A stretch of 62,735 nt of DNA, from contig JBDRMK010000007.1 in the NCBI GenBank assembly GCA_043812155.1, positions 1 to 62,735 on the forward strand, read 5' to 3'. A program made the translations under genes and the position numbers. The notes below the pieces were generated by a model. That model saw only the letters and a list, made by a program, of their open reading frames with translations, did not search any database and was not told the origin of the DNA. Source of the stretch: Patescibacteria group bacterium. Its GTDB lineage: Bacteria > Patescibacteriota > Patescibacteriia > JAXHNJ01. This document shows, piece after piece, positions 169 to 61,739 of the stretch (its first letter is position 1; each line of letters begins with the position of its first letter).

Positions 169-222
169 GTGAGCAGGGTTAGTTTTTGCTTGTTTTGTGG
201 CTTTTTTACGGGGATGCTATTT

Positions 223-395
223 AAATTCCAAATCCGAAATCCGAAATTCTAAACAAATCTTAAATCCCAAACCCCAAATCCGAAACCCCGTTAGAAATGT
301 GATTTCTAAACGGGGAAACCGGTTTGAAACATTGGAAAATTAGAATTTCGTGCTTGTTTATGATTTAGTGCTTAGAATTTATAATTTAGAATTTT
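223..395. repeat. long imperfect low-complexity hairpin (IVS-like arm element), no ORF in the loop
   Basis: The left arm (aaattccaaatccgaaatccgaaattctaaacaaatc...) mirrors the right arm (...gtttgaaacattggaaaattagaatttcgtgcttgtttatgatttag). The centre is ccccgttagaaatgtgatttctaaacgggg. Confidence 0.7.
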
Positions 396-4024: not shown

Positions 4025-4056
4025 AGACTAAATTAACAATTTAATAAATCATGGTT

Positions 4057-4365
4057 TAATGAGGCGTGGAACGGCGGCCTGTACCTTGGACGCTTGGGCC
4101 GTCGGGAGCAAATAGCGTAACCGGCATTATCTTTTTTTGCCGTGTTACAAAACGCCTCTATTATCAGGTGTTTTTTTGTGCCCTTTAACTTCAAAAAAGA
4201 AAGGAAAGGAGTCTTAATGAGGCGGAGCGGGTATCCCTGAATGAGGACGCCTTGTCTTCTTACACCGGTAAGGAGCGGGGGATACGCCCATAGTGTCGCT
4301 ATGGGTTACCGTTAGCAAGTGGCGTAACCGGCATTAAGTCGACTTGTTACGTATTGCGCCTCATT
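4057..4365 (+). ncRNA. two tandem related structured RNA domains (riboswitch-like leader), class unknown
   Basis: Both domains open with TAATGAGGCG (4057, 4215) and close with CGCCTC(T)ATT (4153-4163, 4356-4365). Both contain GCGTAACCGGCATTA with a gtaac..gttac helix. Confidence 0.5.
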
Positions 4366-6888: not shown

Positions 6889-6928
6889 TGGGTAGCTTTC
6901 GATTGTTTATTCTTTCGGAAGCTACCCC
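6889..6928 (+). terminator. hairpin after the lipoprotein gene (weak T-run)
   Basis: gggtagctttc...ggaagctaccc. Confidence 0.5.
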
Positions 6929-6965
6929 TCTATTTATTAATTAATTATTTAGTAATATAATAAAT

Positions 6966-7196
6966 ATGCAAGAAAAAATTATGAAAAATCGCTTATTATT
7001 TTGGAGTTTAATTGCTTTTCTTTTCTCATATCTATTTATTGGGGTAATCCTTTTATTTATTTTTCCCGATAAGCAAGCCAATAATTATCTGAAAGAACTT
7101 TTAGCTAATTTTCCCCAGTCCACTCTATCTTTAGTAGGACATTTTTTAGCTCGGTTTTTTGAAATTTTACTTTGGCCGATTTATTTATTAACTTGA
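6966..7196 (+). CDS. small membrane protein, hypothetical
   Basis: 76-aa ORF with two hydrophobic segments (alternative ATG at 6981). Confidence 0.5.
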   Translation: MQEKIMKNRLLFWSLIAFLFSYLFIGVILLFIFPDKQANNYLKELLANFPQSTLSLVGHFLARFFEILLWPIYLLT

Positions 7197-10910: not shown

Positions 10911-11029
10911 ACGAATATAAAGATAATATTGTTGTTTATTTTTGTCAAATTGTTTGACTGTGGATAGTTTGACAAGGGGAGTGTTTAGGTATTAAGATTG
11001 ACTTAGGTGGCTTGAAGGAGCCATTTTTT

Positions 11030-11443
11030 ATGTATAAAAATTCTAAATCCGAAATCCGAAACTCTAAACAAATCCTAATTTCTCAAATTCCAAATCCTAA
11101 ACCCGCTTCCTACGACTTAGAGAAGAGAACCTTTAACTTTGCCAAGCAGGTTATTGGGTATGTTTATCGTTTGCCGAAAAATATGGCTAATTATGAAATT
11201 GGTAAACAATTGATTCGATCAGCCGGTTCGGTTGGGGCGAATTATATTGAAGCAAACGAGTCTTTAGGCAAGAAAGACTTTAGAATGAGAATTAAAATAT
11301 CTAAAAAAGAAGCGAAGGAAACACGTTATTGGTTGGCTTTGACCCTGCCTATCAAAGAGGAGGAGGCGGAAAAAGAGGCATTAATCCAGGAATCGACGGA
11401 ACTGATGAAGATTTTTGGCTCAATTGCTGAGAAAAGTCAATAG
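11030..11443 (+). CDS. four-helix-bundle protein (IVS/Avd-like family)
   Basis: YDLEKRTFNFAKQV...GKQLIRSAGSVGANYIEANES...KDF..R..IS.KEAKET.YWL. The N-terminal low-complexity residues are encoded by the hairpin arm. Confidence 0.85.
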   Translation: MYKNSKSEIRNSKQILISQIPNPKPASYDLEKRTFNFAKQVIGYVYRLPKNMANYEIGKQLIRSAGSVGANYIEANESLGKKDFRMRIKISKKEAKETRYWLALTLPIKEEEAEKEALIQESTELMKIFGSIAEKSQ

Positions 11444-11517
11444 TTTGGAACATTGGAATTTCGAGCTTCGAATTTGTCTAGGATTTAGGATTTAGTGCTT
11501 CGGATTTAACCATAAAC
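11036..11517. repeat. hairpin cassette whose loop carries a four-helix-bundle gene
   Basis: The left arm aaaaattctaaatccgaaatccgaaactctaaacaaatcc... mirrors the right arm tttggaacattggaatttcgagcttcgaatttgtctaggatttaggattt. Confidence 0.65.
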
Positions 11518-18860: not shown

Positions 18861-18895
18861 GTTTTGAGAATTGAGCGGTGAGGCGGACGAGGGTT

Positions 18896-19023
18896 AAAAT
18901 CCTAAACTCTAAATTCGAAACTCTAAACAATATCTAAATTCTAATTTTCTAAATCCCAAACCGGTTTGAAACATTCGGGTTTAGAATTTGTTTAGGATTT
19001 AGAAATTAGGATTTAGGATTTAA
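18896..19023. repeat. long imperfect low-complexity hairpin, no ORF
   Basis: aaaatcctaaactctaaattcgaaactctaaacaa...cccaaaccggtttgaaacattcgggtttagaatttgtttaggatttagaaattaggatttagg. Confidence 0.7.
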
Positions 19024-47062: not shown

Positions 47063-47756
47063 CCTAAGTAAACCGGATGATCGCCCGCCTTCGCTCTGCG
47101 CTTTACGCTTGAGCTACGGCGGGCAAGCCCCTTTTTTTAGAGAAATAAGGGGGCCTGCCCGCCGAAGCCCGAAGTGAAACGTAGGGCGAAGGCGGGAGGA
47201 AAGTCCGAACACCTCTTTCGCCAGTTTTTGGCGAAAGAACAACGATAGTTCTTAACAAGAACCGAAGGGTAAGTGGTCAAAACGCTCGCGCGAATTTTTG
47301 ACGCTTTGCTTTTTAGGGAAAGTGCAACAGAAACATACCGCCGCAAGCCCTATTCACTTATCGGGGCTGGCAAGGGTGAAATCGTGTCCTCCTTCGTCTT
47401 CCTACGGAAGACTATGGCGGATTCTCCGAAACCAAACGCATTCTGTATCATCTTTGTTTTACAAGGATTGATACTCCGAAGCCTTGGCGAAGGAGTAAGG
47501 TAAGAGCTCACGCTTTTCCAAGGTGACTTGGAAAAGGGGAAAACCCTATCGGGTGCAAGACCAAAGTTATTTCCGGTTAAAATTTAGCCGGGGATGGGTA
47601 GGTCGCATGACTCCGGCCGCAAGGCCAGGGGCAAGAGAGATGATCATCCTGCCTTCGTCAAGACTTCGGCAGGCAAGCCCTCTTATTTTAAGGAGGGACT
47701 TGTCCACCGTAGCCTTGGCGAAGGTGGACAGAATTCGGCTTATAGGTTTACTTAGG
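47063..47756 (+). ncRNA. rnpB: RNase P RNA (bacterial type), unusually long because of GC-rich hairpin insertions
   Basis: P1 cctaagtaaacc/ggtttacttagg. Conserved blocks GGAGGAAAGTCCGAACAC (47196), AGTGCAACAGAAACATACCGCC, GGGTGAAA, GGTAAGAGCTCACG and ACAGAATTCGGCTTATAGG (47728). Confidence 0.85.
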
Positions 47757-52066: not shown

Positions 52067-54222
52067 ACAGCCATTATCAGAAAAATACCTCCAAAGATGA
52101 TCAAGAGGAATATTTAAAAAAAACACGGGTCCCCCGCGATAATGTTTTAGATTTAAAACATTTGTTTGCCCCGGAAGAAGAGGTGAAAAGAACCAGTCTG
52201 CGGGGTAAATTTAATCTGAGTAAATTTTGGCCAAAATTGCCCGCGGCAAAAAAAATAAAACTCGGCGGGCTGGTTATCGGCTGGAAAAATGTGATAGTTT
52301 TCGGGGTAGTCTGTCTCGTTTTGATATTGCCTTTTTTATGCGCCCAAGGCTATCAAGGTATAAATAATCTAAAAGGCCGGGTCTTGGGTGTTTCGGTGAG
52401 CGCTTTGGATAATTTAAAAAGCGCCGGGCTGGCTTTGAGCAATTTTGACATGGCGACCGCCGCCGACCGCTTCAATCAGGCGGAAAATGATTTTAACGCC
52501 GCTCAAAAAGAACTGAGCCAAATTAATGACGTAATTTTCGCCCTGATAAAAATCATTCCCTTTAAAGGGGAAACCGTGACTTCCGGCCAGCATCTGATTT
52601 CCGCGGGCAAGAATATCGCGGAAATAGGCCAGCTTATCAGCGAACAATTAAAGCCTTTAACCGGAGAGCTTAAACTTAAAGAAGGCGAACTGGTCGTTCC
52701 AAAAGTGCTGTTTTCATTCCGACAGAGCTTAGAAGTGGTGTCGGATAAAATGAAAGCGGTTAAAAACGATTTAGACAAGGTAAAGATCGAGAGTTTGCCT
52801 CAGGAATATCAGGTCCAGATTCTGAAAATCAGAGAGGCCTTACCGGCCTTGGATGAATATCTTGAAAAAAGCAAATCAATGTTTTCCGTCTTAACTTCTC
52901 TTTTAGGCCAGAATAAGACCCAGGAATTTATTTTCATTTTTCAAAATAACCGGGAAATAAGGCCGACCGGCGGTTTTATGGGCAGTCTGGCTTTGGTGAC
53001 GGCGAAGAACGGCGAGGTGAAAATTTTGGAAGTGCCGGGCCGGGGGCCGTACGAGATAAACGATGATCTGTCTGCCGACATAATTCCACCCAAGCCCTTG
53101 TGGCTGGTCAACAATAAATGGGGGATACAGGACGCCAACTGGTTTCCCGATTTCCCGGCCACAGCCCAAAAAATAAACTGGTTTTATGAACTGTCCCGCG
53201 GCTTTTCCGTGGACGGCATCGTGAGCCTTACCCCGGATATTATTATTGATCTGTTGAGAATAACCGGACCGATAACTTTGGATAAGTACGAAACCGTGAT
53301 CACCGCCGATAATTTCATTGAAAAAACCCAGCTTAAGGTGGAAGTGGAGTATGATAAAGCGACTAACCAGCCTAAAGCCATAATCGGAGACTTGATCCCG
53401 CTGCTTTTAAATAAAGTTTTAAAGACCAAGCCCGGCGATTTTCTGGAACTGGCAAAGGTTTTACAAAAAGCGGTGTCAGAAAAAAACCTGCTGATCTACG
53501 CCAAAGACGAAAATTTGGAAAAAGAATTGATTGACCTGGATTTGGGCGGTGAGATCAAAACCGCGCCTAAAGATTATCTAATGGTGGTCAATACCAATAT
53601 CGGCGGCGGGAAAACCGACGGCGTGATTAGGCAGGAAATTTTACACGAGGTTTCTTTTTATTCTGACGGCGAGATTGTAGATACTTTAACAATTAAACGG
53701 ACGCATCAAGGTGATCCTAATAATTCTGTTACTAAAATAAAAAATATGGATTATTTAAGAGTTTATGTGCCGGCCGGCGCCGAACTTTTAAGCGCTTCCG
53801 GTTTTAGCGAGATCGATAAAAATTTGCTTAAATATCCTGATGAAAAGGCGGTTGAAGACAAGGATCTGATGAATATTGAAAAAGATCCGGTGATTGACGA
53901 AAGAAGCAACACGCGGATAACTTCTGAATTCGGCAAGACTTGTTTTGCTAATTGGTTAAACGTGGAAGTGGGAGAAAGCAAGGAAGTTGTTCTAAAATAT
54001 AAACTGCCCTTTAAACTTGAAGAGGCGGGTGTTTATTCTTTGTATTTACAAAAACAGCCGGGAGTAAACGATTCCTCGTTCACCGGCACTTTAACCCTGC
54101 CTTCAGATTTCAGCTTAATCCAAGGCTTGCCCGAAGGCATAATTAAAGATAATGAGGTTAATTATCAAACAACCATTAATGAAGATAAGGTTTACGGCGT
54201 GGAATTGGATAAATTAGAATAG
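52063..54222 (+). CDS. DUF4012-like membrane-anchored protein
   Basis: N-terminal TM segment, FIFQNNREIRPTGGFMGS block, 719 aa, EPS context. Confidence 0.65.
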   Translation: MNSHYQKNTSKDDQEEYLKKTRVPRDNVLDLKHLFAPEEEVKRTSLRGKFNLSKFWPKLPAAKKIKLGGLVIGWKNVIVFGVVCLVLILPFLCAQGYQGINNLKGRVLGVSVSALDNLKSAGLALSNFDMATAADRFNQAENDFNAAQKELSQINDVIFALIKIIPFKGETVTSGQHLISAGKNIAEIGQLISEQLKPLTGELKLKEGELVVPKVLFSFRQSLEVVSDKMKAVKNDLDKVKIESLPQEYQVQILKIREALPALDEYLEKSKSMFSVLTSLLGQNKTQEFIFIFQNNREIRPTGGFMGSLALVTAKNGEVKILEVPGRGPYEINDDLSADIIPPKPLWLVNNKWGIQDANWFPDFPATAQKINWFYELSRGFSVDGIVSLTPDIIIDLLRITGPITLDKYETVITADNFIEKTQLKVEVEYDKATNQPKAIIGDLIPLLLNKVLKTKPGDFLELAKVLQKAVSEKNLLIYAKDENLEKELIDLDLGGEIKTAPKDYLMVVNTNIGGGKTDGVIRQEILHEVSFYSDGEIVDTLTIKRTHQGDPNNSVTKIKNMDYLRVYVPAGAELLSASGFSEIDKNLLKYPDEKAVEDKDLMNIEKDPVIDERSNTRITSEFGKTCFANWLNVEVGESKEVVLKYKLPFKLEEAGVYSLYLQKQPGVNDSSFTGTLTLPSDFSLIQGLPEGIIKDNEVNYQTTINEDKVYGVELDKLE

Positions 54223-54238
54223 CAGCGTAATTCAGCAG

Positions 54239-54247
54239 TTATCCACA
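54239..54247. promoter_or_regulatory. perfect DnaA-box 9-mer
   Basis: TTATCCACA immediately after the DUF4012 stop. Confidence 0.45.
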
Positions 54248-54249
54248 AA

Positions 54250-54271
54250 GGCCAGATGTTGGCCTTTTTTT
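54250..54271 (+). terminator. intrinsic terminator
   Basis: ggcca-gatgt-tggcc followed by TTTTTTT. Confidence 0.75.
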
Positions 54272-54383
54272 AATATCCAAAAAACAGGCATTTTTGACTG
54301 ATTTTGCCTTGTTTTTGATCATATTAAATAATTAATTTAACCTAACATTAGGCAAAAATAGACTGGGGTGGGGATAACCCCCC

Positions 54384-54412
54384 TTGACAATAAAACCAGG
54401 CCATTCTATATT
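54384..54412 (+). promoter_or_regulatory. sigma70-like promoter at the left edge of the island
   Basis: A GC hairpin ggggtggggataacccc abuts TTGACA, then a 17-nt spacer and TATATT. Confidence 0.55.
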
Positions 54413-54873
54413 GACCAGTTAAGTGAAAAGAGGGAGAGAGACAAAGTCTTAGAGGAGGGGACTTTGACAACCAAATAAGAGTGAGGAGAAAGAGGAGAGA
54501 GAACCGATTTTTATATAGTCGGTAATAGAAGATTTATATTAAAGTGTTTTTAATATTGAAAAAGGGCTCTCTCCAAATATGTTGGTAGGGTCCTTTTTTG
54601 TTGGCTTATTATCTTAATGAGAGAAAAGGAGGGTAGTTAAGGCGTTCTCCCCGAAAGGGCTTGGAACGACCGAGGCCTGAGAGAAAGTCAGGGCAGGAAT
54701 TATCTTGCCCTAGAACTTTCACGAAAGGCCGGGCCTGGTCTCAAATCAATCGATATGAGAATCAAGCCGCACTATCCTTCTGTTCTCTCCTTAAAGATCT
54801 TTGAGGAGCAAGGAGGGGAGGGGGTCTAGTATCCTCTCTCTTCCTACCGTAGTTTTCCTTGAAAAAAAATAAA

Positions 54874-55016
54874 ACCTCCAGGGTAGTCACAGGGAGGGTG
54901 AGAAAATCATTTCGGATGATGTTGAATGTTTGGTCGGGTTTACTCGATCATCCACTCACTTCATCTTTAGGCCTGTTCTTTTTTTAAGAAAAGATTGCCA
55001 TTTTATTCTCACCTCC
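54874..55016 (+). repeat. diverged member (R0) of the SD/anti-SD-ended structured repeat family
   Basis: 5' ..cctccaggg..agGGAGGGTGAGaaaat and 3' attttattCTCACCTCC are inverted. It shares the ttaggcc-hairpin-gattgcca-ttttatt-ctcacctcc layout with R1 and R2. Confidence 0.4.
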
Positions 55017-55080
55017 GTGTGCGTGCTCTGGATTACATAACAAACGTTTGGATAAGGAATTCCGAAATGAAGAAGTGATT

Positions 55081-55320
55081 ATGTTCAAAGTATTGATTAT
55101 TGTCGGTACTATGATAGTAATTCGTCGGATACTTAATCTTCATTTCCATATTACCAAGCATGGCGTTCATCGCCCTGTATGGTGGATATGGAAAGATGAA
55201 GGCTGCTGGCGTTATATTCCTCGTGAATACGATCCCAGCGAAATGCGGGAATGTACTTGCTGCGGGAAGGCGTTCTGGCGGGCGAAAGGAAGTATCTTCT
55301 GGCAGGCAGTTTGCCATTAA
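55081..55320 (+). CDS. possible small TM plus Cys-rich protein
   Basis: MFKVLIIVGTMIVIRRIL... then CTCCGK. Several overlapping ORFs exist on both strands, so the call is uncertain. Confidence 0.3.
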   Translation: MFKVLIIVGTMIVIRRILNLHFHITKHGVHRPVWWIWKDEGCWRYIPREYDPSEMRECTCCGKAFWRAKGSIFWQAVCH

Positions 55321-55587
55321 ATCTTTGTTCTTTTCTAAAGGATATATTCCAGGCCAGTCTTTGGCCAAAACCGGGGAACGAGATTGCCATTGCTTCAAAG
55401 CTTTCGCATCACTCTCGTCCCCCGGACTTTTTCAAGGGCATTAATGCTTTAGTGCCTTAGAAAAAGTCCAAATTAATTTGGACATTGTTCTTCTTTAAGA
55501 GATGCCCCACAAAGGTATCTCCCCGCTAAGACCAGTTTACTGGTCATCCCCGGGGGAGTCGTATCAAAGACCCGATTCCTCCATTCC

Positions 55588-55618
55588 CTTGAGAGCATTG
55601 AAACAAAATGCTTTCAAG
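55588..55618 (+). promoter_or_regulatory. leader hairpin (cttgagagcatt / aatgctttcaag)
   Basis: Paralogous to 56118-56153. Followed by agagtgaaagtgg.. and an SD. Confidence 0.5.
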
Positions 55619-55669
55619 AGAGTGAAAGTGGTCAGGTAGATTTTGACAACTCGAACAGGAGGTTCTGAA

Positions 55670-55855
55670 ATGACTTGGAAAAAGGTAGGTTTATCAAACT
55701 GCGGGATGCTGCTGTTCGTGCTCGGTTTCGGGCCGCTCGGGGTCAACCATTGGTTGACTCATACGATCGGTTGCGGACTGATCTTCGGCGGTTTGACGCT
55801 GACGCTTACCATTGTGTTGACGCCAAGCCCGTCGGTAAAGGAGGCAATAAGATGA
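55670..55855 (+). CDS. small 2-TM protein (61 aa)
   Basis: SD caggagg 7 nt upstream. MTWKKVGLSNCGMLLFVLGFGPLG...GLIFGGLTLTLTIVL. Confidence 0.6.
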   Translation: MTWKKVGLSNCGMLLFVLGFGPLGVNHWLTHTIGCGLIFGGLTLTLTIVLTPSPSVKEAIR

Positions 55856-56046
55856 AAGCCATCTGTATACTTCTGGTAACGGTGGATGCGTGCCTATACT
55901 TGGCCGCGATTACCGTTCTGGCAACGCTAATGCCGCCATATTACGTGGTATGCGTTGTCCTGGGGGTCGGCATATACGATTTCATCGCCACTACTCGGTT
56001 TTCTCGCCGTTGGTGGCAGATGACAAGGAGAATCCTCGGCCGGTAG
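55852..56046 (+). CDS. small 2-TM protein (64 aa), translationally coupled
   Basis: ATGA start/stop overlap with the previous ORF, SD aaggagg upstream; MKAICILLVTVDACLYLAAITVL... Confidence 0.6.
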   Translation: MKAICILLVTVDACLYLAAITVLATLMPPYYVVCVVLGVGIYDFIATTRFSRRWWQMTRRILGR

Positions 56047-56117
56047 CCATATCGGCCATTATGCACCTTCTTGCACAACCAACCTTTGGGGGGTCCGAAA
56101 CAGCAACGACCCCCTAT

Positions 56118-56153
56118 CTTCCGAGAGCATTAAAAGATTAGTGCTTTCAGAAG
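56118..56153 (+). promoter_or_regulatory. leader hairpin (cttccgagagcat / gtgctttcagaag)
   Basis: Same design as 55588-55618. Followed by agaatgaagtcgg.. and SD taaggagg. Confidence 0.5.
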
Positions 56154-56194
56154 AGAATGAAGTCGGCTGTTTGTAAATTTTAAGGAGGTCAGTC

Positions 56195-56368
56195 ATGCGT
56201 GAGATTCTTATCAATTTACTGATATCAAGTATTGCGTGTGTCATCTTGGCGATTGGATTGAATGCAAATCATAAGATTCAGCTTGGAATCAGCATCTTGG
56301 CGACCATACAGGTGATTTTGGGAAGCCTCAATTTTGTTCTTATATCCCGTAAGAACAGAATAAAGTAG
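56195..56368 (+). CDS. small 2-TM protein (57 aa; below the ORF-track cut-off)
   Basis: SD aaggagg 6 nt upstream. MREILINLLISSIACVILAIGL...ISILATIQVILGSLNFVLI. Confidence 0.55.
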   Translation: MREILINLLISSIACVILAIGLNANHKIQLGISILATIQVILGSLNFVLISRKNRIK

Positions 56369-56641
56369 AGGCAACGCACTTTTACCCGAGAGAGAGATCC
56401 GCTTCTAGCGCTTTTTTCTCTCGGCTTTCCCAAGCTAAGCAATAAATTGGTTAGCTTAGGAAAGAGTTCTTTGACACGCCTCCGTCTCCCTGCGGGAGAT
56501 TTCGGCGCGCGAGACTCAGTAAAACCATGTTTATTTCTGTTTGGCAAGCCCTGATGTTTGTCATCGGGTATTCCGTTGAGCTTGACCAAAAAATCCCATG
56601 GCCATGAGCCACAGGATTTGAGAAACGGGTATTTTGAAAAT

Positions 56642-56935
56642 TTAATATTCCAGTTTAACCTTAACTTTACGCGCCAGCTGGCGGATTAGGTCTTCCAGGC
56701 GGGCAACCTCTTTATAAAGAGCGCGGTCAAGCTTAGCTTCTATTCTTGATAGGCGTTGGCCGTGATCAGAGAGTTCCTCGTGAATAACTTGTAAATCCTG
56801 CTTAGTTGCCATGTCCTTAATATCCTGTTTCGTTGCCATATCGGCAATATCGCGTTTAGTTGCGGTTTCGTCAAAACCACGGGCCACCATCCTGGCCAAT
56901 TCATTCAGAGTAATTTGTTTTTTTGACTTTTTCAT
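56642..56935 (-). CDS. coiled-coil protein with a short tandem peptide repeat
   Basis: TKRDIADMATKQDIKDMATKQDLQ repeat followed by a heptad-like C-terminus. Has its own promoter. Confidence 0.65.
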   Translation of the reverse strand: MKKSKKQITLNELARMVARGFDETATKRDIADMATKQDIKDMATKQDLQVIHEELSDHGQRLSRIEAKLDRALYKEVARLEDLIRQLARKVKVKLEY

Positions 56936-56973
56936 AATCTATCTTCCTATTTAGCCGCCAAAACTGCTTACTT

Positions 56974-57002
56974 ATTATAGTTTAGCCTTTAAAAAGCGTC
57001 AA
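56974..57002 (-). promoter_or_regulatory. sigma70-like promoter (minus strand)
   Basis: Minus strand reads TTGACG, 17-nt spacer, TATAAT. Confidence 0.55.
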
Positions 57003-57056
57003 GATGCATTAATATATTAAATATAAATCCGTCTTATCAGCTCTTTGACTAAAAAT

Positions 57057-57246
57057 CTTTCTTCGCCACCTCCATGGAGGGTGAGTCTCCCTGTCGAAAG
57101 ATAGGGCAATCGACTGGGGATATATTGATTGTTTAACTTGGTTTCACTAAGTTAAATTAGTTGATTATCCCTTAGGCCCTTTACTTCTTAACCGGGTAAA
57201 GATCAGCCAAATTAAACTCACCTCCAGTGAGGTGGTGGAAGAAGAA
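57057..57246 (+). repeat. structured repeat R1 (about 190 nt) with inverted SD-like / anti-SD-like ends
   Basis: 5' cgCCACCTCCatgGAGGGTGAG and 3' CTCACCTCCagtGAGGTGGtg. The internal long hairpin is gggatatattgattgtttaactt / aagttaaattagttgattatccc. Confidence 0.6.
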
Positions 57247-57297
57247 ACAACGGTTTCAGAAAGACTGCTAGAAAAGGCGGTCAAGAAAGGAGTCGTC

Positions 57298-57549
57298 ATG
57301 GACGACTATGAAGGCAGTTTTCGCCAGGAAGGTCAGCAAGCGTATAATGCTTGGCTGAAACAGATGCTCATAATGGCTCTCGTTATATTCGGGGTTTTGA
57401 TTGTCGCAATCTGGGTTATTCCTCTGGCAATGTGTCACGGCTTGCAGATTCATAGCAAGGTGATGACGCAAGCCAAGATTGCCGCTACGGTCATTGGCGT
57501 ATTGGGTATCGTGTTGGGCTTTTGGTCAATTTGTTCCGAAAGGAAATGA
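57298..57549 (+). CDS. small 2-TM protein (83 aa)
   Basis: ATG behind aaaggag. The ORF-track GTG start (57232) lies inside repeat R1. Confidence 0.6.
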   Translation: MDDYEGSFRQEGQQAYNAWLKQMLIMALVIFGVLIVAIWVIPLAMCHGLQIHSKVMTQAKIAATVIGVLGIVLGFWSICSERK

Positions 57550-57810
57550 ACTCGACCAAGTAGTACCTACGGTTTTACGGGCGTCTGCCAGCCTAAGATG
57601 GTAGAGTTTTTCTCATGAAAAGAAGGATTGATGACGTACGAACCTTAGGTGGAGGTGAGACCACCTTAAAAAACACTAAAAGATATGGCGGCGGACGCCT
57701 GAAACTGAAGTTCCGCGGGGGCTTGAGCGCACAACTAAGTCTTAAGCCCCTTCCTTCTCAAGCCGACAATGAATTGCCGGTTTAAGAAGGAAAAGTTCTT
57801 TATATCAAAC

Positions 57811-57999
57811 CTTTCTCCGCCACCTCTATGGAGGGTGAGTTGACCCTGTCGAATGACGGGGGCAATCGACTGGGGATATATTGATTGTTTAACTTGGTTT
57901 CACTAAGTTAGATCAGTTGATTATCCCTTAGGCCCTTTACTTCTGAAAAGAGTAAAGACAAGCCAATTTAACTCACCTCCAGTGAGGTGGCGGAAAGAA
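57811..57999 (+). repeat. structured repeat R2, direct copy of R1
   Basis: Roughly 85-90 percent identical to R1 by eye, including a 48-nt identical block. The closing pair changes from ggtggtg to ggtggcg. Confidence 0.6.
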
Positions 58000-58060
58000 T
58001 AATTAATTTAAGTATTGAACTTTTCAGGCAGTTATTCAACCTTTGCTAGGAGGTACGGTC

Positions 58061-58798
58061 ATGAACGGTAGAATCAGCAAGACGGGAGACGCCGGTTACT
58101 TTTTTATCGCCGGCGATGACGGGGGCAACTACTATTCCCGCGACGAATGGGTCTATTCCAGCTTCCGTGGCAGGATCGAACTCAACGCCCGGGTGGAGTT
58201 TCAGACCCGGGTATGGCAGGGAAAGCCGCAGGCTTTCGCGGTCAGAGCGGAAGCTTTAGCCGCGTCGCAAGCCAAGTCGGTCAGGACCGTCAAGTTTGAC
58301 GAGCACCACGATGGCCGGCTTCAGCTTCTTCACTCCATTCTGGAGGAGGGAAGGAAGCCGAGCGATGATGAGCAGAAAACGCTCTTCGCGGTGTGGCTGA
58401 CGGATGCCCAGGGGCATCTGCTCACGGATCAGTACGACTGCGGAAACTGCGCCCGGCACCCGCGCTTCTACCGGCAAAGGTTCGACGGACTCTACGTCGT
58501 GACCTTCGGCCAGGATTACCCCGCGGTGATTCTCTGTGAGAAGTGCCGCCGTCGCTTCTCCCAGCTGTACCCTTCGTGCCAGACGAATATCAGTCCGCTC
58601 TATGATACCCTGGAAAGACTCGGTATTCGGCCGAACGGTCGCGGCTGGACTCTCGGTCAGGCCGCCAATTCCCATCGTCGGGAAAAGAATCGGCGAATCA
58701 TCAAGCCGATTTTCCAGGCTTCGGAAAAGGCCCGGCAGAGCAATGAAGAGCTCGTCGAGAAGTTCTCGAAACGCTGGCGCGAGCAGAAGACCGCCTGA
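58061..58798 (+). CDS. cold-shock-domain-like N-terminus plus CxxC..CxxC zinc-ribbon protein
   Basis: SD aggagg. GRISKTGDAGYFFIAGDDGGNYY...RVEFQ...GKPQAFAV follows the Csp pattern (KGFGFI..DDG...V.F...G..A..V). Also CGNCARH...CEKCRRR. Confidence 0.65.
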   Translation: MNGRISKTGDAGYFFIAGDDGGNYYSRDEWVYSSFRGRIELNARVEFQTRVWQGKPQAFAVRAEALAASQAKSVRTVKFDEHHDGRLQLLHSILEEGRKPSDDEQKTLFAVWLTDAQGHLLTDQYDCGNCARHPRFYRQRFDGLYVVTFGQDYPAVILCEKCRRRFSQLYPSCQTNISPLYDTLERLGIRPNGRGWTLGQAANSHRREKNRRIIKPIFQASEKARQSNEELVEKFSKRWREQKTA

Positions 58799-58920
58799 CA
58801 TCGTATAAAAATTAGGAAGGGGCTCGCAAGACTTGAAATACAGTTTTGTCCGCCCCTTCCGCTCTCTTGAGCCTATCAGAAAAAATCTGGTAGACTGAAG
58901 AGAGTTCTTTGAGAAAAAAG

Positions 58921-59042
58921 TTGGCAGCGGTTCGTCTGTTAGCATATAGCCTATGGCTTATGGCATATAGTTTGTTTGTTTAGTAGTTTTTTCCATAAGC
59001 TATAGGCTATAAGCCATACGCTAGCAGTTGGGCCGCTGCCAA
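58921..59042. repeat. low-complexity long hairpin, no ORF
   Basis: ttggcagcgg..gcatatagcctatggcttatggcatatag // ccataagctataggctataagccatacgc..ccgctgccaa. Confidence 0.6.
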
Positions 59043-59045
59043 TCC

Positions 59046-59183
59046 TGTTTGACCCGAAATCAGACAGTAAAATAATCGGGTGAGCGATTATTTTTGCCGA
59101 TAAGGCGGCAAATGAGGGCCCGAAACCCTCGACTGTTACCCGGACCCGAAATCCGGATTTCATACCGACGGCCCGAAACCGTC
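59046..59183 (+). promoter_or_regulatory. array of four stem-loops with an identical CCCGAAA loop
   Basis: tgtttga-CCCGAAA-tcagaca (59046), gaggg-CCCGAAA-ccctc (59114), ccgga-CCCGAAA-tccgg (59140), gacgg-CCCGAAA-ccgtc (59167). The SD and ATG follow at 59192-59206. Confidence 0.6.
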
Positions 59184-59203
59184 ATAAATCAGGGAGGTTC
59201 GAA

Positions 59204-59761
59204 ATGTCGAACGTATATGTTGAGAGGCTCGAAGCGGAATACCGCCGAGCCAGCAATCTGGTCAAGTTCTTCGTCGGGTGTTTGATCATCGTCGGTCTCG
59301 TTCTGGTCCTTTGCTTCAAGCCGTTTTTTGGTGATCGTCCGGCTTTGGACTCCCTGTGCTGGAGCACGGGAATTGTCGTCGTCGGCATCGGCGCCGCCGC
59401 ATTTCTTCTGATGGAAATGAAGAAGAAGATGGTTGATGGCCAAGTGGATAAGGCTTTCAAAAACTTCTTCGGGTTTTATCCGCAGATCGCCGATATAGAG
59501 CAGTTTTCGGTCACGGCCGAAGGCATGGTGAGGAATCAGCTTAAAATCAAGTCTGCCCTACTGAAACAGACGCTGGGAGCGAAAGATGCGCTCAAGTCCG
59601 CGATCAAAGAGGGCAAGATGACCAAGGCTTTCCAGTACATCAATCGCTGCCTTAAGCAGGATGTTGATGAGATCTTCAACGCGTACGATGCCGCGATGTA
59701 TCGCGGCTACCTGCGCGACGTGCTCAAGGAGAGGTCCCTCGAAGCCCTAGCTTCGCTCTAA
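59204..59761 (+). CDS. 2-TM protein with a helical soluble C-terminal domain (185 aa)
   Basis: SD agggagg 6 nt upstream, two hydrophobic segments, then a charged helical tail. Confidence 0.7.
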   Translation: MSNVYVERLEAEYRRASNLVKFFVGCLIIVGLVLVLCFKPFFGDRPALDSLCWSTGIVVVGIGAAAFLLMEMKKKMVDGQVDKAFKNFFGFYPQIADIEQFSVTAEGMVRNQLKIKSALLKQTLGAKDALKSAIKEGKMTKAFQYINRCLKQDVDEIFNAYDAAMYRGYLRDVLKERSLEALASL

Positions 59762-59846
59762 TCTCTGATTACCTGTCTCACCGCAGGTAATTGATCTTTG
59801 GAAGGGGAGCGAACGTTTTGAAAAATTCGTTTGCTCCCCAACCTAC

Positions 59847-59875
59847 TTGAGTCCGCAATTAATAAAGTGTATAAT
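59847..59875 (+). promoter_or_regulatory. sigma70-like promoter
   Basis: TTGAGT, 17-nt spacer, TATAAT. Confidence 0.5.
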
Positions 59876-59932
59876 TGTAGGCTCAAATAGGTTCATTGAA
59901 AGTTTTAAAACAACTAGCGCGGAGGTTATGAC

Positions 59933-60355
59933 GTGAAGAAGATTAGTTTGATTGAAGTCTTTATTGGTATAGTCGTGGTGGCTTTGCTCGCGGCAGTCTT
60001 GTCACCTTCATTGACTCTCTGGCTGGTACGGGCTCGGGAAGCGGAGTTCGCGGTCAATTATTCCGCTGTCCAGAAAGCAGCCGAGGATTTCGCTATTCAG
60101 AATTACGGCCGTTTTCCTCGGAATATCGATAAAGATAAAACGCCGTCCGGACAAACGCTTCGGGATATCGTGTCTGCATACGACAGCATTTCTAATCCGT
60201 TCACCAAGAACGGGGTCACGGTAGTAATCAACGGGATAGCCTGGAAGATTGGGCAGGTCGGATACTTGCCAAATTTTCAGGACAGTATCCCGGTCGGCTG
60301 TACGATTACCGCCGTTGGTATTATAGGTGATACAGTCATCGTCTGTCCAAAGTAA
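59933..60355 (+). CDS. pilin/pseudopilin-like protein (atypical N-terminus)
   Basis: GTG behind ggagg. MKKISLIEVFIGIVVVALLAAVL resembles a class III signal but lacks the Gly before the cleavage site. DFAIQNYGRFP resembles the GspG-type Y..dnG.yP segment. Confidence 0.55.
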   Translation: MKKISLIEVFIGIVVVALLAAVLSPSLTLWLVRAREAEFAVNYSAVQKAAEDFAIQNYGRFPRNIDKDKTPSGQTLRDIVSAYDSISNPFTKNGVTVVINGIAWKIGQVGYLPNFQDSIPVGCTITAVGIIGDTVIVCPK

Positions 60356-60367
60356 CGGAGGTTAGTG

Positions 60368-60766
60368 ATGAGAAAAGCCTTGATTTTCGCCTTGATTTTT
60401 TTGGCCGTAGTCGGCGGGCTCTCCCTTCGTTCCTATATCCTTGAGAAGAAGGAACTGAATGATGTCCGCCGGATCTGCTCTTTCTATTATGCTGTGGCCG
60501 TCCATTATGAGGAATTGAACGGCCGACCGCCGGAGTCGTTATCGGCCAAAATCGGCGGCACGACTCTGGCTGATTCGATCGTTACTCGGTGTTCCGAAGC
60601 AGGGATACCGGTAATCTCCATGGATTCGATGATGGTCTATAAGGACGTCATCGAGATCCGGCATGCGCCATGTATCACTATGAATCTCGATAGCAGTTTT
60701 GCAGTATACTGGAAGGAGGATTTTACAGAACATCTGTACGCCGTATACTCGCCAAGCGGTGAGTAG
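60368..60766 (+). CDS. second TM-anchored pseudopilin-like protein
   Basis: ATG behind ggagg. N-terminal hydrophobic helix, then HYEELNGRPPESL. Confidence 0.5.
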   Translation: MRKALIFALIFLAVVGGLSLRSYILEKKELNDVRRICSFYYAVAVHYEELNGRPPESLSAKIGGTTLADSIVTRCSEAGIPVISMDSMMVYKDVIEIRHAPCITMNLDSSFAVYWKEDFTEHLYAVYSPSGE

Positions 60767-60888
60767 GGAATTGCCCTTTTTTCGTCATATCGGGCACGTT
60801 CAAGTCCAACTCTTCGGACGTGCCTTCCTTCCTAGGTCATTATTACTACCAAAATAGTGGCTTGAGAAGGGTAATATTTATTAACCCC

Positions 60889-60916
60889 TTGACATTTTAT
60901 TCAATATAGTTATATA
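60889..60916 (+). promoter_or_regulatory. sigma70-like promoter at the right edge of the island
   Basis: ccccTTGACA, 16-nt spacer, TATATA. Confidence 0.5.
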
Positions 60917-60922
60917 TTGAAG

Positions 60923-61066
60923 ACAGAAAGCTGTCTGTAAGCCTAAAATCAAGAATTTCTGTGGCAATAGCAAATCTCTCTCCTCTTGTTTTAGAAACGC
61001 AAGTTTTTAAAGCAAAGCTACTGAACAGTCATTCTCAAATTTACAAAGCTTACAGGCAGCTTTTTG
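60923..61066 (+). ncRNA. candidate small RNA (about 140 nt)
   Basis: A 14-nt 5' segment agctgtctgtaagc (60929-60942) pairs with gcttacaggcagct (61048-61061) and is followed by TTTTT. It lies just downstream of the promoter. Confidence 0.4.
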
Positions 61067-61130
61067 CGTTTACTTTATTTTTTCGCTTTGAAACTGGGTT
61101 GGTTATTGTTATTTTAAGCATACTGCTGGT

Positions 61131-61650
61131 TAAATTCCAAATTTCAAGCATCAAATTTCAAATAAGCTCCAAATTTCAAAACCAAAATTCAAAACACAAG
61201 GTTATTTGGATTTTTCAATTATAGAACAGAAGATTTTCTTGAGCTCAATGGATTCGTTAAAAAGGAAATAGCCTTGTTTTTGGATATCTTCTTTATTGGT
61301 TTCCATTAACAATCTTAGCCAATAGGCGGATTCTTTCGCTTCTTTGCGGCAAATTTTTGCTCTTAAAAGAAAATCTTTTCGGCTCAAAGACTCATTGGCC
61401 TCAATATAATTGGCACCAACAGAACCGGCTGATCTTACCACTTGTTTTTTATATTCCAAGTTGGCCGCCGTGTAGGGTATTTTTTGCGTATAAAGAGCGA
61501 CGTTTTTGGCGAACTTAAAACATCTTTCCTCTAAGTCATAGTATTTGTTTCGGTCATTGAAATTTTGGTCATTGTCCGCCCGAGGCGGAACAGCCTTGGG
61601 CTGAGGATTTATTTGTGTTTTGGGATTTGTGATTTGGTGCTTAAACATAA
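61131..61650. repeat. hairpin cassette whose loop carries a four-helix-bundle gene (minus strand)
   Basis: The arm taaattccaaatttcaagcatcaaatttcaaataagctccaaatttcaaaaccaaaattcaaaacac mirrors ggatttatttgtgttttgggatttgtgatttggtgcttaaac. Confidence 0.65.
61202..61648 (-). CDS. four-helix-bundle protein (IVS/Avd-like family)
   Basis: YDLEERCFKFAKNV...KKQVVRSAGSVGANYIEANES.SRKDF..RAKICRKEAKES.YWL. The start MFKHQITNPKTQ is encoded by the arm. Confidence 0.85.
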   Translation of the reverse strand: MFKHQITNPKTQINPQPKAVPPRADNDQNFNDRNKYYDLEERCFKFAKNVALYTQKIPYTAANLEYKKQVVRSAGSVGANYIEANESLSRKDFLLRAKICRKEAKESAYWLRLLMETNKEDIQKQGYFLFNESIELKKIFCSIIEKSK

Positions 61651-61739
61651 AAAGAGGCCTTCCAAAGCCACCTATCACAATTATATAAAAAGCGCGGCCA
61701 GTTGTCAAAAGCGCGAATTTCTGTTAAAATTCGTTTATT

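Follow-up and report, generated by a model that had tools for sequence, protein, structure and literature searches.

What are four small hairpins that present one and the same loop doing in front of a membrane-protein gene, and what would read them? The question is raised by a 62,735-nt contig of a Patescibacteria group bacterium (GenBank assembly GCA_043812155.1, contig JBDRMK010000007.1, forward strand), the whole of which is referred to below as the window. Near its end, four stem-loops with the heptaloop CCCGAAA form an array in the intergenic region upstream of a gene encoding a protein of 185 amino acids (aa). The array is a real and statistically solid pattern, and it is probably a regulatory RNA. 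The reading that we prefer, with a probability of roughly one in three, is that of a cis-acting leader RNA of the 185-aa membrane-protein gene, whose loops would be read by a trans-acting factor, most likely an oligomeric RNA-binding protein controlling the start of translation.

The four stem-loops described in an initial annotation of this DNA were all recovered, and the stem of the first was found to comprise 8 bp. All lie on the + strand. The first hairpin (hp1, 59045-59067) reads CTGTTTGA-CCCGAAA-TCAGACAG, with one U.G among its eight pairs and the loop at 59053-59059. The second (hp2, 59113-59131) reads (T)GAGGG-CCCGAAA-CCCTC(G), in which five Watson-Crick pairs are extended to 6 bp by an outer U.G pair (loop 59119-59125). 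The remaining two, hp3 (59140-59156, CCGGA-CCCGAAA-TCCGG, loop 59145-59151) and hp4 (59167-59183, GACGG-CCCGAAA-CCGTC, loop 59172-59178), have stems of 5 bp. While hp2, hp3, and hp4 are spaced 26-27 nt apart by linkers of 9 nt (GACTGTTAC) and 10 nt (ATTTCATACC), the 45-nt gap between hp1 and hp2 holds two unrelated hairpins on the same strand, at 59070-59093 (9-10 bp, loop GGUGAG) and 59094-59111 (6 bp, loop AUAAGG), which together fold with a minimum free energy (MFE) of -16.5 kcal/mol (z = -4.0). The spacers between the hairpins are unrelated in sequence. Common to the four copies is an 11-nt core, G-R-CCCGAAA-Y-C, whose penultimate pair is G-C in every copy and whose closing R-Y pair is G-C in two copies and A-U in the other two.

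The word CCCGAAA itself was not enriched in the window, with 16 copies on both strands versus 20.8 expected, and the 12 copies outside the array had flanking stems of only 0-3 bp. In 200 block shuffles of the window, hairpins with the exact loop and a stem of at least 5 bp were expected 0.015 times per window and never occurred more than once, whereas four were observed, all of them on the + strand inside 138 nt. Occurrence at chance frequency and without clustering, named in the initial annotation as one outcome that would speak against the array, was thus not what the window contained.

When the four copies were aligned as 17-nt hairpins, all 20 stem cells held standard pairs, and four of the five pairs showed double-sided changes. 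The observed pairing or covariation score was reached by none of 500 shuffles, and the pairing fell to at most 55% in slid alignment registers. The three outer stem pairs differed in 15 of 18 pairwise comparisons, which is about the level of random sequence, while the loop bases were identical throughout (28/28). Since the outer stems are nearly random while the loops are identical, the pattern argues that the identity of the loop is under selection and is not the product of recent duplication alone. The four sequences therefore argue for loops held identical by selection on stems selected to pair and to present them, which supports the earlier proposal of an invariant, displayed loop on differing but still pairing stems.

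Every hairpin folded alone adopted the drawn structure as both its MFE and its centroid fold. In transcripts assumed to begin at 58800, 58862, 58907, 59045, or 59110, the mean predicted probability of a loop being unpaired was 0.93-1.0, except for hp1 in the transcript from 59045 (0.58) and hp2 in that from 59110 (0.77), both of which lie within a few nucleotides of the assumed 5′ end. The whole leader folded at -122.8 kcal/mol (z = -7.7) on the + strand, compared with -110 kcal/mol on the - strand. Immediately 5′ of the array stands a near-perfect long hairpin of 124 nt (58920-59043, + strand), which is weaker on the minus strand and is composed of short ATAGCC/TATGGC-like repeats. The + strand is favored as the RNA because the U.G pairs of hp1 and of this long hairpin turn into A.C mismatches on the - strand. 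Taken singly, hp2-hp4 folded slightly better on the - strand, so that the strand argument rests on hp1 and the long hairpin. The neighboring genes are all on the + strand.

The placement of the array is that of a leader, as the initial annotation had stated: it lies on the coding strand between the stop codon of an upstream 251-aa gene and the Shine-Dalgarno (SD) sequence of the 185-aa gene. Reading through the intergenic region (58799-59203), a GC-rich hairpin is followed by a second hairpin, the 124-nt hairpin, hp1, the two unrelated hairpins, hp2-hp4, and the SD. The GC-rich hairpin (GGAAGGGGC...GCCCCTTCC, 58815-58860, + strand) comes directly after the stop codon, and it is followed at 58862-58904 (+ strand) by CTCTCTTGAGCCTATCAG-AAAAAAT-CTGGTAGACTGAAGAGAG; together they form a conserved intergenic module, and the array is placed between this module and a strong SD. 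The SD, AGGGAGG, is located at 59191-59197 (+ strand), followed by the ATG at 59204. That the last hairpin stands just 5′ of this SD was correct, but the distance of about 10 nt given for it was not, since the measured gap is 7 nt, with 20 nt from the end of hp4 to the AUG. The start codon lies in the loop of a further hairpin of 6 bp (GTTCGA-AATG-TCGAAC, 59197-59212, + strand).

The downstream gene (59204-59761, + strand) encodes a near-orphan protein with a helical C-terminal part and two hydrophobic segments at approximately residues 19-41 and 51-71, which fits its earlier description as a two-transmembrane protein. A word-indexed search returned no homolog, the protein belongs to no meaningful Pfam family, and there was no tblastn match in phages and no match in PHROGs or PADLOC. 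An exhaustive HMMER search yielded a single relative, P0124, with 48% identity over residues 65-185 (E = 1.4e-21); each of the two proteins forms a single-member cluster. The gene for P0124 is located just upstream of murJ on the JGI contig Ga0373629_0273315 (JGI 3300035660; L359), which starts inside the gene, so that its leader is lost.

In the preferred reading, the array would lie in a 5′ untranslated or intercistronic region and be transcribed within the mRNA of the 185-aa gene, with every hairpin serving as a scaffold for one 11-nt core made up of CCCGAAA and its G-C and R-Y closing pairs. A trans-acting factor, presumably a protein, would read the repeated loop, and a dimeric or oligomeric RNA-binding protein could occupy several loops cooperatively. 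As hp4 abuts the SD, the effect would be a control of 30S access: occupancy would overlap or adjoin the landing zone of the small subunit and so set the rate of translation initiation. In the simplest version this would be repression by occlusion, and in an alternative version the SD would be released from upstream sequence that otherwise masks it by pairing. Arrays of loops on free stems are the recognition mode of CsrA, ANTAR, coat, and N-type proteins, and the multimeric binding platform suggested in the initial annotation is plausible.

A candidate RNA-binding protein is at hand in the product of the 251-aa gene (58043-58798, + strand), immediately upstream of the intergenic region of the array. 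Its N-terminal 65 residues or so were modeled as a five-stranded barrel with a predicted local distance difference test (pLDDT) score of about 70-75, and the Foldseek matches of this model were nearly all cold-shock proteins (TM-score to target 0.65-0.76). The barrel is followed by a CxxC...CxxC motif and an Arg-rich C-terminal tail (SHRREKNRRIIKP...). Neither Pfam nor PDB sequence searches returned anything, and among 5.8 billion proteins there was one homolog, an ortholog with 60% identity in the related locus L296. Judged by its model, the 251-aa protein, which is encoded on the same strand as the array, is a plausible RNA-binding protein, and it may possibly be a lineage-specific RNA-binding regulator. 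The cold-shock-like fold ascribed to the adjacent protein in the initial annotation was therefore recovered for the N-terminus, but its link to the array was not: the L296 ortholog has no array nearby, so that adjacency is no evidence of partnership.

Whether the array recurs elsewhere bears directly on this reading. In a scan of genome contigs for three CCCGAAA loops at the spacing of the array, at least 120 loci were matched; among the matches listed, one had two or more stemmed copies, and this was a tandem repeat. A scan of metagenome contigs with the closing pairs added to the pattern also matched at least 120 loci, nearly all of them satellite-like tandem repeats containing CCCGAAA, and among the matches listed two loci had two or more stemmed copies, both being tandem repeats with identical stems. 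An array on differing stems was thus not present among the matches listed for these at least 240 loci. Complete scans of IMG/VR matched 55 loci with the three-loop pattern and 61 with the two-loop pattern, none of which had two stemmed copies. The further instances that the initial annotation had proposed looking for in genomes and metagenomes were accordingly not encountered in these searches. A blastn search of the leader against phage and plasmid records found no match, and the 62.7-kb window contained no second array.

The same was true of the relatives. The window is bacterial, containing an RNase P RNA and a c-di-GMP-II riboswitch, and its murJ homologs place it in the Patescibacteria or Candidate Phyla Radiation (CPR). 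The array lies within a hypervariable island bounded by a DUF4012 gene and murJ, which is poor in ORFs, rich in hairpins, and populated by small genes. Eleven loci, L298-L302 and L360-L365, were fetched via murJ homologs, with one relative represented more than once, and nine related islands upstream of murJ (L296, L298, L299/L300, L301, L359, L360, L361, L362/L363, and L364/L365) contained no CCCGAAA hairpin array and no other cluster of identical loops on different stems; L302 contributes nothing upstream of murJ, and the coverage of the island is well under 1.5 kb in L359 and in L363. In L296, the 251-aa ortholog retains an upstream element of about 190 nt and a downstream module of about 100 nt. 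The similarity between the window and L296 stops at 58906 (break 58906/58907), right after the second module hairpin, and resumes at 60888, with 10 nt in L296 (6193-6202) in place of window positions 58907-60887. This segment of about 1,981 nt contains the long hairpin, the array, the 185-aa gene, and two pilin-like genes (140 and 133 aa), and no target-site duplication was seen at its edges. The GC content is 0.59 in the 251-aa gene and 0.52 in the 185-aa gene, compared with 0.43 for the window. In L299, whose MurJ is 86% identical, the module is retained, as is a hairpin homologous to that of 124 nt (6925-7040); a pilin-like gene follows this hairpin about 56 nt downstream, with no array between. 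Together with a further homolog in L300 (approximately 1520-1636), this hairpin occupies the same relative position at about 70% identity. As far as these sequences show, the array is private to its source genome, and because it is a singleton, conservation can be used neither for nor against a function.

Several points weigh against a protein-read leader. A dedicated RNA-binding protein should act on more than one target, yet the array is a singleton in the window, the nine islands, IMG/VR, and the phage and plasmid records, and among the matches listed for genomes and metagenomes. The L296 ortholog of the cold-shock-like protein keeps its flanking non-coding elements and has no array, and cold-shock domains such as those of CspB and CspA normally prefer U-rich single strands. 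Sequestration of the SD is not robust: although the SD pairs with 58905-58912 in the MFE structure of the leader, its predicted unpaired probability swings between 0.26 and 0.64 with the assumed 5′ end, and we therefore did not rely on it. Finally, a mechanism based on a ligand or on loop-loop contacts would explain the same anatomy equally well.

Comparison with known RNA families indicated what is familiar and what is new. No Rfam family matched: Rfam 15 gave only chance-level matches over the array, of at most 17.1 bits and below half of each gathering threshold, and the matches of miRNA models (up to 30.8 bits, threshold at least 80) fell on the 124-nt hairpin and were spurious. When the text of the literature was searched for CCCGAAA together with stem-loop or hairpin, the mentions were all incidental (primer or mitochondrial), in line with the earlier remark that no described motif with this loop was known. 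In the Csr/Rsm systems (CsrB, RsmZ, and CsrA-regulated leaders), hairpins with differing stems show the same loop motif and a dimeric protein bridges the sites, one of which overlaps or abuts the SD in regulated leaders. The array likewise presents one short loop motif on several different stems by an SD, but the Csr motif is A(N)GGA and none of the four CCCGAAA loops contains GGA; moreover, no CsrA-like gene was seen in the window, and the array lies in a leader rather than in a sponge RNA. ANTAR target hairpins and the TwoAYGGAY motif are pairs of hairpins in leaders or non-coding RNAs with a conserved loop on variable stems. They have hexaloops (A1/G4) or AYGGAY loops, and in ANTAR-regulated leaders the second hairpin competes with a terminator, whereas the loops here are heptaloops starting with C, no U-tract terminator follows, and neither Rfam model matches the array. 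The thrS operator, lambda boxB, and MS2-type operators are small hairpins at a ribosome-binding site or in a leader, whose loop is read by a protein. They resemble the array in exposing a loop sequence on a largely free stem, but they comprise one or two hairpins with other loops, and no counterpart of ThrRS, N, or coat protein was found here. Like type III toxin-antitoxin loci, the array places short RNA repeats in tandem right in front of a gene whose protein may be harmful. The ToxI repeats, in contrast, are nearly identical including their stems, while the hairpins here share only the 11-nt core, and ToxI neutralizes a ToxN/AbiQ-like endoribonuclease, whereas the protein here has two transmembrane segments and no PADLOC or Pfam match. 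A repeated loop on free stems in a leader is of a known kind, and the CCCGAAA loop and its fourfold arrangement are new.

The alternative that survives best dispenses with a protein. In guanidine-II riboswitches, a linker of 7-40 nt joins two short hairpins whose ACGR tetraloops are identical and whose two G-C closing pairs are conserved; the hairpins kiss through the C and G of their loops and thereby free the SD. The anatomy of the array matches this published definition almost point for point (PMC5558903). It too consists of tandem mini-hairpins that have one identical loop and stems covarying in their outer part, and it too stands just ahead of an SD; the two pairs next to the loop are G-C (penultimate) and R-Y (closing) throughout. 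The linkers between hp2, hp3, and hp4 (9 and 10 nt) are similarly short, with 45 nt between hp1 and hp2. The loop has a self-complementary CG at its center with a purine on the 3′ side, the hairpins come in an even number, upstream sequence pairs with the SD in the MFE structure, and the gene that would be regulated encodes a small membrane protein. Identical loops could thus kiss via the central CG, perhaps depending on a ligand or cation, and dimerized neighbors (hp2-hp3, hp3-hp4, or two pairs) would change the accessibility of the SD. The array differs from guanidine-II (mini-ykkC, RF01068) in having the heptaloop CCCGAAA instead of the tetraloop ACGR, four hairpins instead of two, an R-Y closing pair where guanidine-II has strictly G-C, and a single occurrence versus more than 800. 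The RF01068 covariance model found no match at E ≤ 10 on either 176 or 601 nt, and the downstream gene is unrelated to guanidine detoxification, being neither SugE/EmrE-like nor a carboxylase. Since loop, covariance model, and gene association all fail, the array is not a member of guanidine-II, but judged by its anatomy it may work in the same way. Riboswitch classes usually have a wide distribution, yet the searches described above gave no second example of the array, and no ligand can be proposed; we consider a device of this type unlikely, though a serious contender. The boldest form of this idea, which we regard as rather improbable, is that a new class of sensors built from tandem mini-hairpins, guanidine-II-like with a heptaloop, has its first member in the array, whose loops would dimerize with or without a ligand and switch the translation of a membrane protein; an equally new alternative would be an array of anticodon-arm decoys.

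Quite unlikely in our view is a purely structural role, in which the hairpins would act as an mRNA stabilizer, RNase barrier, pause site, or spacer, or would be leftovers of duplication kept perfect by quasi-palindrome template-switch correction, the loop being read by nothing. Hairpins of various kinds do abound in the intergenic regions of the island, the lineage-specific occurrence of the array marks it as young or dispensable, and template switching, an established mutational mechanism, can yield paired changes in stems without selection. The contrast within the array is difficult to obtain in this way, since the stems are nearly random in their outer part, yet no change is seen in the 28 loop bases or in the G-C penultimate pair; copies drifting neutrally after a duplication would not show such a contrast, and the spacers are unrelated as well.

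It is improbable that the loops are read by another RNA, either by kissing with a trans-acting RNA carrying UUUCGGG or as look-alikes of a tRNA anticodon arm that decoy or recruit an enzyme or nuclease binding anticodon loops. The idea draws on geometry, as hp2, hp3, and hp4 have exactly the 5-bp stem and 7-nt loop of an anticodon arm, together with A37. Read as positions 32-38, CCCGAAA becomes C-C-CGA-A-A, which we take to be the loop CUCGAAA of tRNA-Ser(CGA) with U33 changed to C; hp3 is presumably comparable to the corresponding arm of E. coli, and C32 and A36-A37-A38 would fit the usual composition of anticodon loops. There is also a precedent in the thrS operator, which mimics the anticodon arm of tRNA-Thr next to an SD. 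The nearly universal U33, however, is replaced by C in each of the four copies, the anticodon is no recognition element for SerRS, the window contains no tRNA gene for comparison, and no convincing complementary exposed loop was found in it, only 6-mer complements at chance level such as the loop UUUCGGA at 54910. Very improbable is a DNA-level element, in which single-stranded hairpins or cruciforms would serve as a recombination, cassette-boundary, replication, or uptake signal tied to the segment of about 2 kb at 58907-60887: the array does lie 140-280 nt inside the left edge of this insertion/deletion difference from L296, a long inverted repeat adjoins it, and the island behaves like exchangeable small-gene cassettes split by a conserved hairpin module, but no recombinase, transposase, or integrase was seen in the island, the edges of the segment show no target-site duplication, the cassette boundary is the module and not the array, which other cassette junctions lack, and the U.G pair of hp1 is an A.C mismatch on the other strand.

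Some narrower candidates were rejected on their own terms. A peptide repeat behind the array was considered, as a 63-aa ORF (59094-59285) spans hp2-hp4, but the 26- and 27-nt spacing puts the loops in different reading frames. An operator or iteron of double-stranded DNA would require the opposite of what is seen, because here the "spacer" is conserved and the "half-sites" vary, and the 26-27-bp spacing is no multiple of the helical repeat. As an integron attC site, the 124-nt hairpin has its terminal GTT/AAC motifs in the wrong order, and there is no integrase. The UAUGG repeats of the long hairpin were also dismissed as 11-nt receptors for a GAAA tetraloop, these segments being plain Watson-Crick duplex.

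The preferred reading, a leader RNA bound by a protein, has to be seen against the island around it, whose other genes also carry long structured leaders, so that regulation by leader RNA is the local norm. The CCCGAAA array is one more such leader device, on a cassette carried only by the source genome and, in part, by L359. A structured leader RNA of about 190 nt precedes various small genes, among them the 251-aa gene and its ortholog, in seven copies from three genomes (window 57053-57242 and 57808-57997, with a diverged third copy at 54876-55020; L296 5128-5316 and 2280-2436; L299 3908-4106 and 614-780). In its predicted fold, an outer helix (GCCACCUCC...GGAGGGUGAG / CUCACCUCC...GGUGGC) is combined with two inner hairpins and, optionally, a covarying insert hairpin; 22 of its 51 predicted pairs show double-sided changes, and it has no Rfam match at E ≤ 1. 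It is a candidate for a new cis-regulatory or riboswitch-like RNA of this lineage of Patescibacteria. Another leader hairpin, GAGAGCAUU-(loop)-AAUGCUUUCAAGAGAG, precedes two small transmembrane ORFs (window 55585-55672 and 56107-56197) and recurs in L296 (2829-2993), L360 (4812-4854), and L364 (2628-2670), being up to 94% identical while the ORFs are not conserved.

The non-coding junctions of the island are more conserved than its genes, which are small and turn over rapidly (two-transmembrane, pilin-like, and orphan). A conserved two-hairpin module, followed by TTCTTTGA, marks the gene junctions in the window (54200-61000), L299 (1-10000), and L296. In L299, every gap between small genes has the layout of a variable GC-rich hairpin, then CTCTC(T/G)AG-TCTGGCAA-N6-8-TTGGCAGG-CTCAAGAGAG, a T-rich stretch with TTGAnn, and a leader with its SD. 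A hairpin of the GC-rich kind seen at 58815-58860 opens every intergenic module in L299, and the window copy itself is approximately 90% conserved in L296 and L297. Relative to the copies in L299 (TCTGGCAA/TTGGCAGG), the arms of the second hairpin at 58862-58904 carry paired changes. The module could be a terminator/promoter unit or a boundary for cassette exchange.

Directly upstream of murJ, a small-RNA candidate was found in every relative covering the spot (window 60888-61075; L299 9579-9772; L296 6203-6400; L298 approximately 630-825; L301 approximately 690-885; L360 6513-6703; L361 2087-2280; L364 4329-4518). It combines a promoter-like site, TTGACA-17-TATATT, with a rod-like fold that has a 19-bp closing stem and a U-run at its end, and it contains an invariant unpaired CU-rich segment, AAAUCUCUCUCCUCUUG, which resembles a seed of the anti-SD type. 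The candidate is 70-90% identical to its relatives, with double-sided changes in 10 pairs and no Rfam match. Between it and murJ lies a 23S_rRNA_IVP (four-helix-bundle) gene (window 61202-61708, minus strand), which is also present in L298 (980-1438) and L301 (994-1431) and is absent among the called genes of L296 and L299 at this place. The gene is flanked by AT-rich TCCAAATTTCAA repeats, which recur at window positions 221-388, 11003-11511, and 18891-19023. Elsewhere in the window, the class A RNase P RNA (47146-47689) is 544 nt long compared with a model of 367 positions and therefore has large insertions, and the c-di-GMP-II riboswitch (GAG type) is located at 4051-4135.

Patescibacteria have tiny genomes with few recognizable regulators and many orphan surface and membrane genes, and to our knowledge almost nothing is known about their gene regulation. 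The value of the array is limited by its being one instance, upstream of a gene of unassigned function, in an uncultured organism. Nevertheless, one loop shown four times beside a ribosome-binding site offers a clean, testable handle for finding its partner, be it a protein, an RNA, or a ligand. Should a small molecule, or the loops themselves, turn out to be the partner, the smallest riboswitch architecture known would be extended to a new type of loop. The surrounding island, with its intergenic hairpin modules, its leader RNA of about 190 nt, and its small-RNA candidate, may be of broader use than the array itself.

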